DNA of 12,149 nt from Chthonomonadaceae bacterium (GCA_043734985.1 JAYTEU010000052.1:1-12149), one strand, 5' to 3'; counted from the first letter of the stretch, positions 4,850 to 12,149 are shown. The notes: generated by a model not told the origin, from the letters alone. Made by a program: numbers and translations.

Positions 4850-6919
4850 TTACTTGGCTTGTACCGGCTGCTTCTCCTTGACTTCCACCACGATCGCCTG
4901 GAGTGGCGGCGCGATCGCGGGCGCCGCCAGCGCCTCCTGAAGCGCGGCGATGAAGGCGGGATTCTCGGCGAGCGCGCGTGCCAACTGGTCGGTCATCTCG
5001 GGTGTGACAGGCTTGCCCGAGTCGGCTCCGGTCACGCGGGAGAGAGCGGGCTGGATCAGCGAGCCCAATTGCGAAAGGAGACTGCCCACCGCATCGGATG
5101 AGGCGGGCTTTACGAACCCGTTCGCGGAGGTGGAACCGTTACCTGAGTGTCCGTTGCCGTTGCCGCTGGCGGTACTGCCACTCGCCGGACCGTTGACAAA
5201 CCCCTCGATCATCGAGCGCACGCCGAATCCTTTGGCCATGTTGTCCAGCATGGTCGTCGCAGTTTCGGGGGTCCCATAGAGCGTCATATGCCCGTTCGAG
5301 AGGAAACTAGCTAGCGATCGCGCAAACTCTATCTGTACATCGCGGCCCGCCTGAATGGTGAGACGCTGTAATTCGAGCTGAATTCCGGCCTCGGCGAACT
5401 CCTGCCGGTTCTCTAGCTGTTGGCGCTCGACCGCGACCTTCGCCTGCTCGACGTTAACCTGCTCGCGCGCTACGTCGACCGCGACCATCTGCTGCGCCTT
5501 CTCACCGCGCGCGGCCATCTCTTTCGCCTGGGCGTCGGCCTCCGCCAGCGAGCGTTTGGCTTCGGACTGTTTCACCGCGGACTCCCGCTCGGCTTCCGCC
5601 AGTTTTACGCGAGTATAGGCATCCACGTCCGCCGTAGTCTGTTGGCGCAGCTTGTCCTGCTCTATCTGCTGCCGGGCGGCTATCAGCTTCTTATTTGCCT
5701 CGCGATCCGCCTCGGCCAACTGGGTCACCGTTGTAACCTGCTGCCCGGCCTTCTCCCGGTCCGCCTGCGCAAGGAACGCGCCCTCCTCGGCCTTGGCCCG
5801 GGCGGACTCCTGTTCGGCGACGGCGATCTGCTTTAGGCGCTCCGCAACCGCGACGCTTTTATCGCGTTCGACGCCGGCCATTTGGACCTGCTGCTCCTTC
5901 GCGATCTGCGCGGATTGGACTGCCTGCTCCTGCATGGCGCGTGCGACCTCGATCGACTGCTGGCGTGCAATCTCCTGTGTCTGCGTCTGTTTATCCTTTT
6001 CGATCTTGGCAAGCTCGATCTGGCGCTGCTGCGTGATCAAGGCCTCCTGCGACTCCCGCTCTTTATCCGCGCGGACCTTGGCGATCTCGGTCGCCTGCGA
6101 GGCCTCGGCCTCCGCCTGCTGCCGCTCCAGCTCCAGTATCTGCTGGCGGGTTTCAACGTCCTTTAGCTTGCGAGCGCGTTCGGCGGACCGGTCCAGGTTG
6201 TTCCGCTCGACCGCCGCGGCGGCCGTGATCTCCGTGATCTTTTTCTTACCCTGGGCATCGAACACATTATTGTCGCTAAGCTCGGCCGGATCGGTCTGAT
6301 CGAGTTCGGATATCGTCACGGACTCCAGCAGCAATCCGTTGGCTTCAAGATCCGACTTGACGTGCTCCTTGACCTTCTCGGCGAATTCGTCACGCTTGGT
6401 GTGGATTTCGAAGAGGTCCATTTGAGAAGCGATCGCGCGCAGCGCCGAAACGAGTTTCTCGCTAACGAGCGCCTCGACGGCCTCCGCGTTGACGCTGCTC
6501 TCTCCCAGGCTGCGAGCCGCATTGAGAATGTGCTCCTCGTCCGCCTGGACACGAATATAAAATTGGGCGAGCACGTTGGCACGCAGGTTGTCTCGAGTGA
6601 TCAGCGCATTCTGGCCGCGCGGGTTTACACCCAGCTTCATCGTGCGAAGGTTGATCTCCAGCATCCTATGAAAGACGGGCACCACCATCGCGCCCCCATC
6701 GAGCACGACCTTATTGCCGCCACGCCCCGTGCGCACAAAGGCCATGTCCGCGGCAGTCCGCCTGTAATAGGACATACATGTCATAAGACCACCTGCAATT
6801 GCCAGCGCAACTCCGCCGGCGCCCATTCCGACCAGCGCGCCAAGCGGCAGGCGGAAGAAACCGCCCACGGCCGCGACGATAATCATCGCAATTCCCAATA
6901 ATGCAATTATGAACCCCAT
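4850..6919 (-). CDS. floT: Flotillin-family protein (SPFH/band-7 domain protein, FloT/YqiK-like).
   Basis: An N-terminal hydrophobic membrane anchor (IIALLGIAMIIVAAVGGFF...), then an SPFH domain (…VVPVFHRMLEINLRTMKLGVNPRGQNALITRDNLRANVLAQFYIRV…). A long Glu/Ala/Gln/Arg-rich coiled coil (flotillin EA repeats) follows, then a Gly/Ser/Ala-rich C-terminal tail. The tool start at 6985 is TTG. The ATG at 6917-6919 has AAGGAG 8 nt upstream and is preferred (689 aa). It sits immediately downstream of the nfeD-like gene, the conserved nfeD-flotillin arrangement. Confidence 0.9.
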   Translation of the reverse strand: MGFIIALLGIAMIIVAAVGGFFRLPLGALVGMGAGGVALAIAGGLMTCMSYYRRTAADMAFVRTGRGGNKVVLDGGAMVVPVFHRMLEINLRTMKLGVNPRGQNALITRDNLRANVLAQFYIRVQADEEHILNAARSLGESSVNAEAVEALVSEKLVSALRAIASQMDLFEIHTKRDEFAEKVKEHVKSDLEANGLLLESVTISELDQTDPAELSDNNVFDAQGKKKITEITAAAAVERNNLDRSAERARKLKDVETRQQILELERQQAEAEASQATEIAKVRADKERESQEALITQQRQIELAKIEKDKQTQTQEIARQQSIEVARAMQEQAVQSAQIAKEQQVQMAGVERDKSVAVAERLKQIAVAEQESARAKAEEGAFLAQADREKAGQQVTTVTQLAEADREANKKLIAARQQIEQDKLRQQTTADVDAYTRVKLAEAERESAVKQSEAKRSLAEADAQAKEMAARGEKAQQMVAVDVAREQVNVEQAKVAVERQQLENRQEFAEAGIQLELQRLTIQAGRDVQIEFARSLASFLSNGHMTLYGTPETATTMLDNMAKGFGVRSMIEGFVNGPASGSTASGNGNGHSGNGSTSANGFVKPASSDAVGSLLSQLGSLIQPALSRVTGADSGKPVTPEMTDQLARALAENPAFIAALQEALAAPAIAPPLQAIVVEVKEKQPVQAK

Positions 6920-7030
6920 TTCACTCGCTCCTTTGGAAAAGCTACCAGGGTCCTTTCGCGCGCCGTTACACTCGCGAAAAGTCAATCGATCTCACATCTA
7001 CCGTAACTGACCGGGGCATCGCCCGGCTCA

Positions 7031-7810
7031 TCACTCCACAACTTCCTCCACAAGCAGATTGCCCCGAGTATCACTGTCGACCACGATGGCACGACGGCCC
7101 CGCTCGATCGGCGGGTGCCCCGGCGACACGCGGCAACTCTCATCGTGAAGGGATCCATAATCGTCATAGATCATTATTCGCCCGCTCGACTCGCTTACTA
7201 CATAAGCTACATTGCCTTTCAATCCGAAAAGGCCGTTCCGCGACACGACTGACGTCTCCTCCGTGGGCATCAGTCTCGAGATTAGCTCGGATGCAAGCCT
7301 AGCGCCCACAACTCCGCACCCGGCGGCAATGGCCATCACCGGCAGAACCTGGATCAGCGTGGGCGAATGGTTATCTCGCAGAAGCTGCTGCGCCGCGATA
7401 CAGCCGCTCAATCCCCACACCAGGAAAAACGCTTGAAGTACCATCGGAAGGGGAGCGCGGCCGACACCGAAGATAGCGAGCATCGTCTGCGCCTGGGCGT
7501 CGGCCGCCTTGCCTGCCGCGCGATGGCTCGATCCCGCCTTTTGGTTATCTGCCGCGGCGTGATGGCCGGCCGCATGAGCCGGCGCATTTCCCGCGGCATG
7601 GCCAGCTGCATGCATTGGCGAATGCGCGGCCGCGTGGCCGCCCCCGATGTGGCCGTGCCCTCCAGATGCGGAGATACCGCCGTGCATGCTATGGACGCCG
7701 CTGTGATGACTGAATCGAAACGTCGAAAGTAGCAGCAAAAGCGCGGCAACTCCAAAGGGAACCAGGAAAATTAGATAGTGCCAATGCAAAAGCAACGAAG
7801 GATTTAACAA
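7031..7810 (-). CDS. nfeD: NfeD-like (YuaF/YqiJ-type) membrane protein with a C-terminal OB-fold. It carries an unusual His/Ala/Gly-rich insertion after the first transmembrane helix.
   Basis: TM1 is LIFLVPFGVAALLLLLSTF, followed by the His-rich segment. Two further hydrophobic helices follow. The C-terminal GLKGNVAYVVSESSGRIMIYDDYGSLHDESCRVSPGHPPIERGRRAIVVDSDTRGNLLVEEVV resembles the NfeD beta-barrel/OB domain. Start is TTG at 7808-7810 with a GGAGAGGAG SD 6 nt upstream; there is no in-frame ATG nearby. It lies upstream of flotillin on the same strand, the canonical pairing. Confidence 0.75.
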   Translation of the reverse strand: MLNPSLLLHWHYLIFLVPFGVAALLLLLSTFRFSHHSGVHSMHGGISASGGHGHIGGGHAAAHSPMHAAGHAAGNAPAHAAGHHAAADNQKAGSSHRAAGKAADAQAQTMLAIFGVGRAPLPMVLQAFFLVWGLSGCIAAQQLLRDNHSPTLIQVLPVMAIAAGCGVVGARLASELISRLMPTEETSVVSRNGLFGLKGNVAYVVSESSGRIMIYDDYGSLHDESCRVSPGHPPIERGRRAIVVDSDTRGNLLVEEVVE

Positions 7811-8132: not shown

Positions 8133-8161
8133 TTGACCCCGGCAGGCCGGTAGTGTATAAT
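8133..8161 (+). promoter_or_regulatory. Near-consensus sigma70 promoter (TTGACC-N17-TATAAT) driving the 1203-aa gene.
   Basis: TTGACC at 8133-8138, exact 17-nt spacer, TATAAT at 8156-8161 with TG immediately 5'. Predicted TSS near 8168 gives a leader of about 150 nt. An AGGAGAG SD at 8306-8312 lies 7 nt before the ATG at 8320. Confidence 0.5.
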
Positions 8162-8319
8162 AGGAAGGAACCTGTGTCAGGATTTTAGTGGGCGAAGATG
8201 CCCGAACCAGGCTGCACCCTCGAACCGTAGACGTCAGGCCACGTTTGCTGGGGCATGGCGACCGGATTTCGCGATGAGGTTTGACCCAGTTTGCAAAATT
8301 TAATCAGGAGAGTTAACGC

Positions 8320-11300
8320 ATGAGTTTTGACGAACTCCCGCCGGACTCGGAGTCGCCTTCACGGGCTGAACGACCTTCCAAGTCCGAGCAGGAAGCGTCT
8401 GCACAGGATGCGCCGCCCGCTGGACCAACGCGCCGACGCCGCGCGACCAAGACGGGGTCTGCCGCGGCATCCGATCGCCCCGCGGAACCGAAACTGCCAC
8501 GCACGCGTTTCAAGAGTATAAAGTCCGATGACGTCAAGCCTGCCCCTCCGGCAGCGGAGCCTGAGCCGTCGGCGACGCCGCCAAAGAAGCGAAGAGGCAG
8601 CAAGAGCATGCCTTCAGAGGCTGCTCCACCTCCACCTGTCTCCCAGGAAGCCGAGGCTCAGCCGGAGCCAATTCCGCCGGCGCGACGTTCCCGACGCGCA
8701 AAATCCCCAGACACGAAACCGGTTCCGGACGCAGAACCGACTGCAGCAGAATCGATAGCGCCCCAACCGGAGCCTGCCGCTCCGCGCAAGCGCGCTCAGC
8801 GGACGCGCACGTCAATACGAACTGCAACGACCGGGGTGGAAACCACTCCCGACTCGCAGCAAGTCACAACGCCTGAAAACCCAATTCCAACATCGAAAGC
8901 AGGCTCATCGACAGCCTCGCCGGCAGTACTGGATTTGCCTGGTGGAGAAGCGGAATCCAACCCGGTCATAAGCTCGAAACCGCGCTCCCGTTCGCGAGCG
9001 AAGCGTTCCAGCGCGCCGGCCGAAGAGGTCGCTGCGCCCGATTCAGCCGCTTTAGAGGTCTCCACCGAACCTCAAGCTGATGCTATCGCTCCGACGGATA
9101 GCCCTGTATCACGAGCATCCCGCAGCCGCCGGGGGCGTGGACGCGGCAAACGTGAAGGAACACGAGCGGACAAACCCGAGACAGACGTCGTCACGGAACC
9201 CGAGATAGCCCTTCCGACGGCGCCATTGATCCCTCAGCCGCGTGTTATCGATCGTACGGTCGGATCGCATCTGGTCGTCCGTGGCGGCGTCCCCCAGCTC
9301 ACCATAGATAACGTAGCCTTTCCGCCTGTTCTCTTCTTCGGCAACGTACAGGAGTCCGGCGACAAGCAGCGCGTACTGTCTGAAGTGCGTCGAGCAGCGA
9401 GAGCCGGCGTGCATCTCCATTCGACGCTCGTTGAACTGCCCTGCCCACTTTCCGAAGCCACGCACGCACTTGACGAGATCGATCGTGCCATGCGGGCGAT
9501 CATGGAAGCGGACCCGCTCGGCTACGTGATGCCAAGGATCGTCTTCGTACCCGCTCGCGGCTGGAAACGTGAATATCCCACGGACATGGCCACATATGTC
9601 GATGGACCCTCCAGCGATCCGTCGCTCACAAGCGAGCGATTCTGGCGCGAGGCCGAGCACGCGATTGCGATCCTGGTTGCGCATCTCCAGGAATACGAGT
9701 GGAGCAATAGGATCTTCGGGTACCACCTTGAGCGTGGCGAATGGTTCCAACCCGCGGACCAGGGTTACGACCGCAGCATGGCGAATCGCGAGGCGTTCCG
9801 GGATTGGCTCAAAGAGAAGTATAAAGGCAGCCTAGTTGCGCTTCGTGCCGCATGGTACGACGGCAACGTTCAGTTCCACACGGCGGAGATTCCACCGGTC
9901 GTAGCCAAACCAAACCCACAGCGTGCATTTTTCGAAACGCGACGAGAGCGCAGCTCGATTGACTTCAATGAATTCACGTCGGAAAGCACTGCTGACCGCC
10001 TTGTGGCGCTCGCGGGAGCCGTTAAACGCGCAGCCGACGATCGAGCGCTCGTTTCCGTCTGTTACGGATACACGTTTGAATTTGGGCACGGGTACAGTGG
10101 ACACCTGGCGCTGAGTCGCCTGTTGGATTCACCCGATGTCGATCTCATCTGCGGTCCGCCTTCTTATCGCGACCGAAAGCCCGGTGGCGCCGCTTCCCTG
10201 CCGGCGCCGGTGGGTTCCATTCACCTCCATGGCAAGATGTGGCTGTCCGAAGACGACACAAAAACCTTTCTGGCTCCCGTGCAACAGGATCCGGAAGACT
10301 TCAACCCTAGACTGACTGACCGCTTACAGACGGAACAGGCCTACGCGCGCAGCATGGGCCGAGCGTTCTCCACAGACACCGGAATCGGTTTTATGGATCT
10401 TTGGGGCGAAGGTTGGCTCGACGATGACGGCTTGTGGGACCGAATCGCCTCGTTTACGGAGCAGTACCGATCGGTAATGGGCGCTGGAAGTCAACGGCGG
10501 CCCGCAGACGTTATTGTCCTGGTGGATGAGCAGAGTCTTCTGCATGTTCAGCGGGGAGAAGCGTTCTTTAGGAAGATCACCGGTGGAGTTCGCGAGCTGC
10601 TTCAGCGATCGGGGGTAGACTACAAAGTCTACTTACAGGATGACGTGGTCAATCCGGATTTCCCGGTGGACGCAAAGCTCTATCTCTTCGTGAATCCGTT
10701 TCGGCTGTCCGTGGACCAGCGGTCCGCTATCGCGGAAAAGCTTCAGAGCGGGGGTAGGACACTGGCGTGGATGTACGCACCCGGCTCGTGCGAAGCAAGG
10801 CCGCAGATCGGTGGCGCCATGGAAGAGAGTGCGAGCGGGGCCCTTGGGCTGACCCTTCGCCAACAGGAGTGGAACTCGGAGATCGGGTCTCGCGTCATCG
10901 AACAGAGGCATCCGGTTACTGAGGGGCTTACGGCGCGAGAGATCGGCGTTCGAGAGCGGTTGAATCCTTCGTTCTACGTGGAAGATCCGACTGCAACGGT
11001 AATTGCCGAGTATCTTGGCTCAGGACTGCCGTCGATCGCTGTCAAAAAGTGTGGAAACTGGCAGACCGTTTTCGTGGGTGAGCCGGCTCTAACTTGGGAA
11101 CTGTTCCGAGGCATCTGCAAATTCGCGGGCGTACATTTATGGACCGGGGGCGAGGACGTAGCCTACATCGGGAACAACTGGATAACGGTTCACGCCAATC
11201 GGGATGGGCACCGGGCCGTACGGGTTCCCGAATCGTCGGCAATTTACGATCTCACGGAAGGGCGGCTGGTGGCCGAGGATCTACGGGAACATCGATTCTT

Positions 11301-11931
11301 CCTGAAGGCGGGCGCCACGCGAACGCTTTGTATTGGGTCGGTCAGAATGTTTATGGATTTGGGCCTGCCCAATCTCAATGTTGCACCGCCACCCATTCAA
11401 AAGCAATCTCCGGCGAAGCCGCCGGAGTCTCAGCCTCAGCCCCAGGTCGCGCCCCCGCCCGCCCGGCCGGAACCTATCGCCGCTATGAGTTCGGATATGG
11501 AAACGCTTCAGGCCGTGCTGAGCCTGGATTTGAGCCAGATCGAAGGTCTAAGTCTGGACGAGTTTGAAGAAGAAGACGACAGCGGCGATGTGGTCACAAC
11601 CCTTGGCGACCCGGCTGAGGCGGAGGCGCGCCTGGCGGCGCTCCTGCCCGACGCGGAGCTTCTAACAGCGGGCAGACGGAGGCGAAGGCGGGGTGGCCGC
11701 GGTCGCGGCAGGCGTCGCCCTGACGAGATGGACGACGCAGTCACCGCCGATGAAGGCAAGGCAGGCGACCCAATTGTTGCTGCGGTCCTTACGGGGAACG
11801 TAAATGCCGAACCCACGGACATTCGTGCCGCGGACATTCGCCCGATCACCACACCGCCCGAAACCGCGCCTGACATTTCACGAGGCACATGGCCGGACCG
11901 AGAGGCAGACTCGTCGGACGAACCCCAATGA
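8320..11931 (+). CDS. Large multidomain protein with a glycoside-hydrolase family 42-like core, flanked by long low-complexity disordered termini. The core has a TIM-barrel-like region and a class-I GATase-like 'beta-galactosidase trimerisation' domain. Function unknown, possibly non-catalytic.
   Basis: ATG start with a good SD. Residues 1-300 are Pro/Ala/Ser/Glu/Arg/Lys-rich with no hydrophobic segments and no signal peptide. The core (~300-1030) has GH42-reminiscent motifs: ...IFGYHLERGEWF..., REAFRDWLKEKYKGSLVALRAAWYDGNVQF (compare the GH42 ...AFRxWLKxRYGxLxALNxAW), and HGKMWLSEDDTKTF (compare the GH42 nucleophile strand GKPFLLMEST). The segment ADVIVLVDEQ...GVDYKVYLQDDVVNPDFPVDAKLYLFVNPFRLSVDQRSAIAEKLQSGGRTLAWMYAPG fits the GH42 domain-B/GATase-like pattern. 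The C-terminal ~170 aa are acidic and Pro-rich with RRRRRRGGRGRGRRR. The family assignment is from memory of motifs, not from a search. Confidence 0.8.
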   Translation: MSFDELPPDSESPSRAERPSKSEQEASAQDAPPAGPTRRRRATKTGSAAASDRPAEPKLPRTRFKSIKSDDVKPAPPAAEPEPSATPPKKRRGSKSMPSEAAPPPPVSQEAEAQPEPIPPARRSRRAKSPDTKPVPDAEPTAAESIAPQPEPAAPRKRAQRTRTSIRTATTGVETTPDSQQVTTPENPIPTSKAGSSTASPAVLDLPGGEAESNPVISSKPRSRSRAKRSSAPAEEVAAPDSAALEVSTEPQADAIAPTDSPVSRASRSRRGRGRGKREGTRADKPETDVVTEPEIALPTAPLIPQPRVIDRTVGSHLVVRGGVPQLTIDNVAFPPVLFFGNVQESGDKQRVLSEVRRAARAGVHLHSTLVELPCPLSEATHALDEIDRAMRAIMEADPLGYVMPRIVFVPARGWKREYPTDMATYVDGPSSDPSLTSERFWREAEHAIAILVAHLQEYEWSNRIFGYHLERGEWFQPADQGYDRSMANREAFRDWLKEKYKGSLVALRAAWYDGNVQFHTAEIPPVVAKPNPQRAFFETRRERSSIDFNEFTSESTADRLVALAGAVKRAADDRALVSVCYGYTFEFGHGYSGHLALSRLLDSPDVDLICGPPSYRDRKPGGAASLPAPVGSIHLHGKMWLSEDDTKTFLAPVQQDPEDFNPRLTDRLQTEQAYARSMGRAFSTDTGIGFMDLWGEGWLDDDGLWDRIASFTEQYRSVMGAGSQRRPADVIVLVDEQSLLHVQRGEAFFRKITGGVRELLQRSGVDYKVYLQDDVVNPDFPVDAKLYLFVNPFRLSVDQRSAIAEKLQSGGRTLAWMYAPGSCEARPQIGGAMEESASGALGLTLRQQEWNSEIGSRVIEQRHPVTEGLTAREIGVRERLNPSFYVEDPTATVIAEYLGSGLPSIAVKKCGNWQTVFVGEPALTWELFRGICKFAGVHLWTGGEDVAYIGNNWITVHANRDGHRAVRVPESSAIYDLTEGRLVAEDLREHRFFLKAGATRTLCIGSVRMFMDLGLPNLNVAPPPIQKQSPAKPPESQPQPQVAPPPARPEPIAAMSSDMETLQAVLSLDLSQIEGLSLDEFEEEDDSGDVVTTLGDPAEAEARLAALLPDAELLTAGRRRRRRGGRGRGRRRPDEMDDAVTADEGKAGDPIVAAVLTGNVNAEPTDIRAADIRPITTPPETAPDISRGTWPDREADSSDEPQ

Positions 11932-12149
11932 CGAAAGTCCCGCCTGGCCCGAAGGAGTTGGTGGCCTTTAAGATCGGGGCACGGGCGCGCAAATTCCTGA
12001 TCGAAGGCTGTCCTATCGAAGGTTTCGAGGTGTTGTTAACTGCGCTTGCGGAGTCCGAAGTCAACGATCCGCCGCTGCACGCGCTGCTCGTAGTTGAGAT
12101 GACCAAGTTTGAGAAGCGGGTGGCTGCGGCCGACGATGCGGAAGACTGA
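11928..12149 (+). CDS. Small hypothetical protein (73 aa) translationally coupled to the large upstream gene.
   Basis: Its ATG at 11928-11930 overlaps the TGA stop of the 1203-aa ORF (ATGA). Translation is MTKVPPGPKELVAFKIGARARKFLIEGCPIEGFEVLLTALAESEVNDPPLHALLVVEMTKFEKRVAAADDAED, and the stop falls at 12147-12149. The tool's alternative ATG at 11889 would add 13 residues and a 43-nt overlap. No domain recognised. Confidence 0.45.
   Translation: MTKVPPGPKELVAFKIGARARKFLIEGCPIEGFEVLLTALAESEVNDPPLHALLVVEMTKFEKRVAAADDAED

Follow-up and report, generated by a model that had tools for sequence, protein, structure and literature searches.

The gene and its tailed product

The DNA analyzed here, referred to below as the window, is a stretch of 12,149 nt from a Chthonomonadaceae bacterium (GCA_043734985.1 JAYTEU010000052.1:1-12149). 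Its longest open reading frame (ORF) codes for a protein of 1203 aa, in which a folded core related to glycoside hydrolase family 42 (GH42) lies between two long disordered tails (Table 1). This arrangement had been proposed in a first-pass annotation made from the sequence alone. Both fold and chemistry of the protein are of a known kind, and joined to them is a system of disordered appendages that is conserved in evolution and undescribed; the function of the tails is conjecture. The conservation of the tails throughout the phylum Armatimonadota is the main new result and would surprise specialists in carbohydrate-active enzymes (CAZymes) or bacterial disordered proteins. Bacterial proteins, to our knowledge, seldom have long disordered regions, and the function is known for few of these. 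The identical protein was found on 4 metagenome contigs.

Table 1. Features of the tailed gene, its product and adjacent genes (window coordinates).
Feature	Position	Strand	Remarks
Sigma-70-type promoter-like site, TTGACC-17 nt-TATAAT	8133..8161	+	11/12 consensus positions
5' leader	8168..8319	+	~150 nt, Shine-Dalgarno sequence at its end
Shine-Dalgarno sequence CAGGAGA	8305-8311	+	7-8 nt before ATG
Tailed GH42-like protein, coding sequence	8320..11931	+	1203 aa; ORF call
N-terminal disordered tail	8320..9219	+	aa 1-300; Pro/Ala/Ser-rich blocky polyampholyte
N-terminal motif M-S-x-D-E-L-P-P	8320-8343	+	conserved in Chthonomonadales
Basic cluster 1, PTRRRRATK	8425..8451	+	aa 36-44; RRRR conserved in family alignment
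Basic cluster 2, PPKKRRGSK	8578..8604	+	aa 87-95
Basic cluster 3, ARRSRRAK	8680..8703	+	aa 121-128
Basic cluster 4, RKRAQR	8785..8802	+	aa 156-161
Basic cluster 5, RSRAKR	8989..9006	+	aa 224-229
Basic cluster 6, RSRRGRGRGKR	9121..9153	+	aa 268-278; R275 nearly invariant
Domain A, N-terminal beta-hairpin then (beta/alpha)8 barrel of clan GH-A type	9247..10485	+	aa ~310-722
E474 codon, candidate general acid/base	9739..9741	+	in GYHLERGEWF just past strand 4; hhalign and conservation
Helices after strand 4, MANREAFRDWLKEKYKGSLVALRAAW	9778..9855	+	aa 487-512; sole direct sequence likeness to solved GH42 chains (4oif/5dfa)
E644 codon, candidate nucleophile	10249..10251	+	in GKMWLSEDD, end of strand 7; strand 640-645 of the AlphaFold2 model
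Domain B, alpha/beta	10507..11139	+	aa ~730-940; like GATase class I and the GH42 trimerization domain
Domain C, beta-sandwich	11152..11370	+	aa ~945-1017; AlphaFold2 strands 947-1006, within whole-chain GH42 alignments
C-terminal tail	11371..11928	+	aa 1018-1203; Pro-rich linker, short helix, acidic run, poly-Arg box, variable acidic end
Short C-tail helix AMSSDMETLQAVL	11482..11520	+	aa 1055-1067; D..TL.AVL conserved in Chthonomonadales
Hydrophobic-acidic motif LDEFEEEDDSGD	11554..11589	+	aa 1079-1090; aligns with Fimbriimonadia C-tail motif
Poly-Arg/RGG box GRRRRRRGGRGRGRRR	11671..11718	+	aa 1118-1133
Conserved 73-aa ORF	11928..12149	+	start overlaps the stop codon of the large gene (ATGA)
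NfeD/YqiJ-like gene	7031-7810	-	upstream, divergent from the tailed gene
Flotillin/SPFH gene	4850-6985	-	711-aa product; operon with the NfeD/YqiJ-like gene

The near-consensus promoter-like site noted earlier is present and is conserved in homologous loci. When 14 upstream regions were aligned, the pair ATTGACC...(T/A)GTATAAT was found upstream of the homologous genes in at least 10 loci, and CAGGAGA-N7-8-ATG was kept in 14 of 14. Outside the promoter and the Shine-Dalgarno sequence, the leader varied both in sequence and in length. Since the start codon, the Shine-Dalgarno sequence and the promoter are conserved, the annotated start is real and the N-terminal tail (N-tail) is translated. Good expression of the gene is plausible, as judged from the consensus matches of the promoter. 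A riboswitch or leader RNA was rejected, because an Rfam search of the 5' leader yielded no match at E ≤ 1 and because of the variability of the leader.

The disordered character of the tails was evident from structure prediction. In an AlphaFold2 model of aa 1-1200 built on 44 homologues, aa 1-300 had predicted local distance difference test (pLDDT) values of 29-43 and no secondary structure. The C-terminal tail (C-tail) was predicted with pLDDT below 50 except for two short helices (1055-1067, about 72; 1098-1107, about 59). In the core model described below, residues ~310-1017 are confidently folded into a three-domain GH42 architecture. The tails are low-complexity regions rather than conserved folded domains, as had been anticipated, and hold short linear motifs.

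The tails differ in composition. The N-tail contains 50 Pro, 45 Ala, 38 Ser, 32 Arg and 27 Glu residues (isoelectric point (pI) of 9.7). Its description as a long (~300 aa), low-complexity and charge-patterned region held, but it is not simply basic: with 49 Lys and Arg against 42 Asp and Glu residues, it is a blocky polyampholyte. The C-tail (18 Lys and Arg against 36 Asp and Glu; pI of 4.25) is acidic, rich in Pro and equipped with a poly-Arg/RGG box, as described. The whole protein is acidic (pI of 5.5). The N-tail carries six Arg/Lys clusters, compared with 1.05 ± 0.88 expected from 2000 shuffles, and charge blockiness relative to shuffled sequences reached z-scores of 5.3 for the N-tail and 4.9 for the C-tail.

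No hydrophobic segment that would qualify as a signal peptide or transmembrane helix was detected, and no 19-residue window exceeded a hydropathy of 1.0. The first 70 aa lacked an h-region (maximum 12-residue hydropathy of -0.54). A Tat or Sec signal was also rejected, since no hydrophobic region follows the RRRR at aa 38-41. The lack of signal-like and transmembrane segments argues for a cytoplasmic location.

Spread and conservation of the tails

A word-indexed search returned 141 homologues, and among the 120 matches listed all had the same plan, apart from truncated entries. The N-tails of the homologues are ~150-490 aa long, with fractions of ~0.15 Lys and Arg, ~0.16 Asp and Glu, ~0.15 Pro and ~0.10 hydrophobic residues, and have a net charge of about zero. 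Their C-tails are ~70-390 aa long and net acidic, and a net-acidic C-tail of 66-290 aa was recorded across the family. In a pattern scan of one genome per species, relatives were present in 144 species, and every named one belonged to Armatimonadota. The tailed form spans Chthonomonadales, Armatimonadales, Capsulimonadales and Fimbriimonadia, with core identities of 34-77%: apart from identical sequences, the closest homologues reach ~75% core identity, at which synonymous sites are expected to be saturated, values within Chthonomonadales are 45-77%, and those in Armatimonadaceae, Capsulimonadales and Fimbriimonadia (including Fimbriimonas ginsengisoli) are 34-42%. The first-pass annotation had proposed a search for orthologues with the same tails; homologues that carry them exist across the phylum. 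They form one clade in a neighbour-joining tree of core columns, with tail-less and secreted relatives outside; the only two "non-tailed" members inside this clade are contig-truncated fragments. The most parsimonious account is a single gain of both tails (an N-tail of about 300 aa and a C-tail of about 100-250 aa), which the clade then kept.

Particular sequence elements recurred within the tails. At the N-terminus, the motif seen in Chthonomonadales is replaced by MPRKK in Fimbriimonadia and by MRRRRNADAP in Armatimonadales. The conserved islands of the N-tail are clusters of the types RRRR, KKRR, RKR, RSRSR and SRRGRGRGKR, typically five per protein (2-9 in Chthonomonadales and Armatimonadales), with Pro/Ala/Glu-rich linkers between them. 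Clustering of basic residues exceeded z = 3 against shuffles in 80% of 74 proteins (median z of 5.35) and was weakest in Fimbriimonadia. The C-tail box RRRRRRGGRGRGRRR is near-invariant, with at least 90% conservation per column, and a poly-Arg box was present in most complete homologues down to 34% core identity, as determined with ORFs rebuilt from the loci. The hydrophobic-acidic motif reads LDEF in the window versus (M/I)(K/R)L(D/G)EW followed by an acidic run in Fimbriimonadia. Thus, Chthonomonadales and Fimbriimonadia share both poly-Arg box and LDE(W/F) motif; in the C-tails of the latter, a terminal (V/M)FRKRE is also conserved.

When aa 1049-1142 of the C-tail served as the only query of a homology search, no matches were obtained, and hence no evidence for a tail module on other cores. 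A regular-expression scan of ~1 Mb of loci for other proteins with a poly-Arg box turned up nothing beyond chance runs and antisense-frame artefacts of that same site.

The tails are disordered but contain conserved short linear motifs, which is stronger than plain low complexity. Since they have been kept across Armatimonadota, they must do something: a metabolic-enzyme fold has carried ~400-500 disordered residues with Arg-rich motifs through the divergence of a phylum, which implies a selected function. This function is missed by current annotation, in which such proteins appear as "hypothetical protein" or "beta-galactosidase".

As a side observation, RSRSR and SRSRRGRG of the N-tail (window 8989-9006 and 9121-9153) resemble the SR/RS runs that are phosphorylated in eukaryotic SR proteins. 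Genes for a Ser/Thr kinase, a PP2C and an FHA protein lie a few kb upstream of the C. calidirosea homologue (locus L004), which is probably a coincidence.

The GH42-like core and its candidate catalytic residues

The GH42-like fold proposed for the core was clearly supported by structure comparison. The AlphaFold2 model of aa 296-1037, built on 55 homologues, had a pLDDT of 91.4 and a predicted template modelling score of 0.92. In a Foldseek search against the Protein Data Bank (PDB), places 1-29 were all taken by GH42 chains (E of 1.8e-23 to 8.3e-20), with template modelling scores of 0.6-0.7 over ~750 alignment columns that include all three domains, at 11-14% identity. The plan of barrel, GATase-like domain and beta-sandwich is the same as in GH42 enzymes of Thermus thermophilus A4 (1kwg), Geobacillus (Gan42B, 4oif) and Bifidobacterium (4ucf/4uni/5xb7). 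Also shared with these enzymes are a similar sequence of the helix after strand 4, a Glu that aligns with the acid/base, a Glu at the end of strand 7 and, presumably, the cytoplasmic location. Next after GH42 in the Foldseek ranking were the GH35-type exo-beta-D-glucosaminidase GlmA (5gsm/5gsl) and the GH164 beta-mannosidase Bs164 of Bacteroides salyersiae (6t5o), which are GH42-like three-domain enzymes of clan GH-A outside GH42 and lack disordered tails. They match the whole core (568-593 aligned residues, 10-13% identity), so the architecture recurs in separate families with other specificities.

Sequence comparison gave a more distant picture. Of the two Pfam matches that the first-pass annotation had expected, Glyco_hydro_42 (PF02449) was found marginally (21.2 bits against a cut-off of 21; E of 2e-4; aa 443-581) and partially, covering profile positions 109-237 of 376. 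Neither Glyco_hydro_42M (PF08532) nor Glyco_hydro_42C (PF08533) was matched in sequence at E ≤ 1, and so the GATase-like nature of domain B, also noted there, stands by structure and not by sequence. An NCBIfam search of the product was empty. In the PDB, phmmer and hmmsearch queries (the protein itself or a profile of 55 sequences) matched just the Gan42B helix REAFRDWLKEKY..LRAAW over 24-35 aa. For these reasons, a direct sequence assignment to GH42 was dropped. By contrast, hhalign aligned the family profile (tailed and tail-less) with a small profile that combined the N-terminal fragments of three solved GH42 chains, taken from printed alignments, at a probability of 98.9% and an E of 1.8e-17. 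This significant profile-profile alignment indicates homology to GH42, but not family membership. Since the sequence matches to the GH42 models are marginal or absent and E-R-G-E takes the place of the GH42 N-E motif, the core was not filed as GH42. It is homologous to GH42 and of the same architecture, but a member of a separate, large and uncharacterized family.

The size of this family was apparent from an exhaustive HMMER search with the core, in which 4213 representatives of clusters at 50% identity were retrieved at E ≤ 1e-3, and 1505 of them at E ≤ 1e-30. Among these relatives are tail-less proteins of ~700 aa (roughly 30-35% identity), one of which is encoded next to GH127 and GH38 genes. 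Pfam GH42 was matched by 8 of 10 tail-less relatives, five of them at an E of 1e-5 or better (best ~1e-12). Other relatives possess classical signal peptides and extra folded N-terminal domains. The tail-less and secreted relatives look like ordinary enzymes, and the core family, secreted forms included, may merit a new CAZy family.

At locus L006, which harbors a distant tailed homologue, a 691-aa protein with a precomputed Pfam GH42 annotation is encoded nearby (L006:2182-4257, minus strand). An hhalign comparison of the tailed family with this protein gave no meaningful alignment (probability of 0.5%). In this protein, the matching helix is found at residues 405-498 and not where canonical GH42 has it.

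Two Glu residues were identified as candidates for catalysis, E474 and E644, which lie where the motifs of the acid/base and nucleophile strands had been rightly placed. E474 is the second Glu of HLERGEW and pairs by hhalign with E141 of the Thermus A4 beta-galactosidase, the established GH42 acid/base; the reconstructed Thermus fragment carries the correct E141 numbering. Both residues are invariant among tailed homologues, in one alignment of 55 and another of 44 sequences; in a third, which adds more distant and tail-less relatives, the pair predominates. Each was present in 41 of 46 tail-less relatives. Within the tailed family, R406, E474, W475, Y582, Y584, H595, Y616, R619, K639, E644, D646, D693 and W699 are invariant, and these barrel residues predominate also in tail-less and secreted relatives. 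A full-length match of the core, with these residues, H469 and the Gly between Y582 and Y584 shared, places the protein in a GH42-related family.

One position near the candidate acid/base sets the tailed proteins apart. Of 20 tailed proteins, 19 have E or D at position 471 (window 9730-9732), which is variable in the 46 tail-less relatives (E 10, N 10, H 6, T 5). From the alignments, E474 is more likely to be the acid/base than E471. The acidic residue three positions before E474 may mark a changed substrate, e.g., a positively charged or amino sugar.

The conservation of the active site in tailed, tail-less and secreted proteins speaks against a pseudo-enzyme. This option, raised in the first-pass annotation, was rejected as the main reading and is unlikely, because E474, E644 and further barrel residues are invariant or nearly so. 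Judged from these residues, the core is probably a catalytically competent retaining glycosidase.

Genomic neighbourhood and proposed function

The genes around the tailed gene were compared between loci. Directly downstream, the 73-aa ORF was detected by tblastn in ~45 Chthonomonadales loci at 46-75% identity, with the invariant motif AFKIGARARKF..EGCP.EG. It had no match in Pfam, NCBIfam or the PDB, and its homologues are all short hypothetical proteins. Its position suggests a probable co-translated partner, and it may be dedicated to the tailed protein. Beyond it lie a DUF2092 gene, found downstream in 21 loci, and then metK. Upstream, the divergent NfeD/YqiJ-like and flotillin pair recurred in 8 other loci, including L006 (40% core identity). 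All 16 Fimbriimonadia loci (within L067-L086) have an Era-like gene (MMR_HSR1 and KH_2 domains; e.g., L082:8492-9388) in their downstream flank. Coordinates were read for ten of them, and there it is adjacent to the tailed gene: the stop codon of one and the start codon of the other overlap or are at most 7 nt apart. A HAD hydrolase gene precedes the tailed gene in 10 of the 16; at L082, a ZipA_C-like gene comes after era. In a Chthonomonadales subclade (L046:8552-9868; L049, L055, L057), the next gene codes for a UPF0004 and radical-SAM methylthiotransferase of the MiaB/MtaB type. Glycan-utilization neighbours were absent from the loci read except L006, where pectin-degradation genes lie downstream and a GH42 gene upstream of the tailed gene. 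The neighbourhood is thus lineage-specific and mostly housekeeping, with a slight lean to RNA and ribosomes in two lineages, which is weak evidence.

The reading preferred here, to which we give about an even chance, is that of an active cytoplasmic glycosidase, probably multimeric, whose Arg-rich motifs tether it in a multivalent manner to a polyanion or an acidic partner. The core would hydrolyze or transglycosylate a beta-linked glycoside, with E474 as acid/base and E644 as nucleophile, as suggested by fold and conservation, and by analogy of fold it would oligomerize like GH42 enzymes. The Arg-rich motifs would serve as multivalent electrostatic tethers by which the enzyme is held or concentrated on its target, and the acidic stretches beside the poly-Arg box may compete with target binding. 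RNA, ribosome and nucleoid would be the most plausible targets because the motifs are of Arg/RGG character, their patterning is like that in the scaffold region of RNase E, and era and MtaB genes lie next door. A nucleoid-, RNA- or condensate-associated scaffold, as suggested in the first-pass annotation, would fit the conserved Arg-rich motifs and the RNA-related neighbours in two lineages.

A parallel to the tails in composition and patterning is RNase E. Its C-terminal scaffold (degradosome; alpha-proteobacterial BR-bodies) binds RNA and partner proteins and drives condensates (cf. PMC10412687, PMC13405055). As in RNase E, a folded enzyme is joined to a long bacterial disordered region with alternating charge blocks and Arg-rich segments. 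However, there is no sequence homology, the core is a glycosidase fold instead of a nuclease, tails are present on both ends, and RNA binding is conjectural here. An extended version, which we regard as improbable, would make the protein a phylum-specific hub: a multimeric sugar-active enzyme whose tails assemble on RNA or ribosomes or form a condensate, thereby coupling carbohydrate status to RNA and ribosome metabolism. It would correspond to the RNase E scaffold but be built on a glycosidase, with the 73-aa protein as a partner, and the era operon of Fimbriimonadia is a pointer to it.

Several observations weigh against the tethered-glycosidase reading. The tailed protein lacks the Asn of the clan GH-A N-E motif: R472 pairs with Thermus N140, followed by the one-residue insertion G473, and with this Asn replaced, catalysis may be altered. 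E644 is a candidate nucleophile by virtue of its strand position in the model. In Fimbriimonadia, Lys is about as frequent as Arg in the more weakly clustered N-tail, and the preference for Arg may partly reflect high G+C content. The target bound by the tails is proposed from their composition. Finally, the neighbours differ by lineage (Era; MtaB-like; 73-aa ORF and DUF2092; flotillin) without a consistent functional link; since each adjacency is essentially one evolutionary event, the genomic context was treated as weak evidence.

The loss of this Asn, together with the E/D471 typical of the tailed clade and variable in tail-less relatives and the scarcity of glycan-utilization neighbours, would also fit a sugar-sensing regulator, i.e., a pseudo-enzyme whose core binds a glycan or metabolite without turnover and whose tails relay the signal to nucleic acid or another machine. 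The plant BZR1-type beta-amylases BAM7/BAM8 (maize 7upv) offer a comparison; they are GH14, not GH42-like, and combine a folded BZR1 DNA-binding domain with degenerate catalysis, whereas the protein studied here has disordered tails and has kept its catalytic residues. Pseudo-enzymes usually lose at least one catalytic residue. Since both candidate catalytic Glu and nearby barrel residues are invariant over phylum-scale divergence, and the AlphaFold2 model shows no recognizable DNA-binding fold in the tails, a sensor is considered unlikely. A non-specific role of the tails, as entropic bristles, solubility spacers or self-associating polyampholytes on an ordinary cytoplasmic glycosidase with at most N/C self-coacervation, is doubtful to a similar degree. 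Tail sequence between the motifs evolves fast, N-tail length varies from 150 to 490 aa, what is mainly conserved is composition (P, A, S, T, E, R), and the tails of the window's protein are opposite in net charge (pI of 9.7 versus 4.25). Yet the near-invariant RRRRRRGGRGRGRRR box, the LDE(W/F) motif, the N-terminal peptide and the conserved positions of basic clusters are unexplained by composition-only constraints, and N/C charge complementarity is not general, since homologous N-tails have a net charge near zero.

Two further explanations concern location. Binding of the poly-Arg box and basic clusters to anionic phospholipids, possibly in flotillin microdomains, would place the glycosidase at the inner membrane face, where a glycolipid or lipid-linked glycan would be the substrate. 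This agrees with the NfeD/YqiJ-like and flotillin pair upstream in the window and the 8 other loci, one of which is at 40% core identity, and with the common binding of Arg-rich peptides to acidic lipids, a matter of general knowledge. We see little probability in it, because most lineages lack flotillin next to the tailed gene, no amphipathic cationic helix is present (the one predicted in the C-tail is acidic), and the protein is acidic overall. Very improbable is non-classical export to the cell envelope, with the Pro/Ala/Ser/Thr-rich tails as wall-spanning linkers and the basic clusters on an anionic wall polymer. The composition resembles that of extracellular CAZyme linkers, DUF2092, downstream in 21 loci, is a predicted periplasmic LolA-like protein, and the core has secreted relatives; however, these lie outside the tailed clade and carry classical signal peptides instead of tails, and the tailed protein lacks a signal peptide, a Tat motif with h-region, a transmembrane segment and any known sorting signal.

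The architecture is not known from any characterized GH42 enzyme, as the first-pass annotation had noted. We know of no GH42 enzyme with disordered tails of 300 and 170 aa, and literature searches, although incomplete in coverage, turned up no bacterial glycosidase of the cytoplasm described as having long and conserved disordered tails. If the tethered-glycosidase reading is true, tethering to RNA, nucleoid, membrane or a condensate would be a new way of organizing a glycosidase in the bacterial cell, and the tailed protein would be a tractable model for the function of bacterial disordered regions.

Further observations were made on other products of the window. In the NfeD/YqiJ-like protein, a His/Gly/Ala-rich low-complexity stretch (HSGVHSMHGG...GGHGHIGGGHAAAHSPMHAAGHAAGNAPAHAAGHHAAADN) at aa ~35-100 follows the first hydrophobic segment and might bind metal. 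The C-terminal third of the flotillin comprises a very long region that is rich in Gln, Ala and Glu and resembles a coiled coil, as well as a low-complexity segment rich in Gly, Ser and Asn; the composition of this part accounts for the strong AT skew at 5500-6500. At 320-1031 on the minus strand, a DUF6036/DUF2204 nucleotidyltransferase-like ORF (320-880) overlaps an 81-aa ORF (786-1031). These are two genes also on the source contig, and the pair looks like a toxin-antitoxin-type arrangement.

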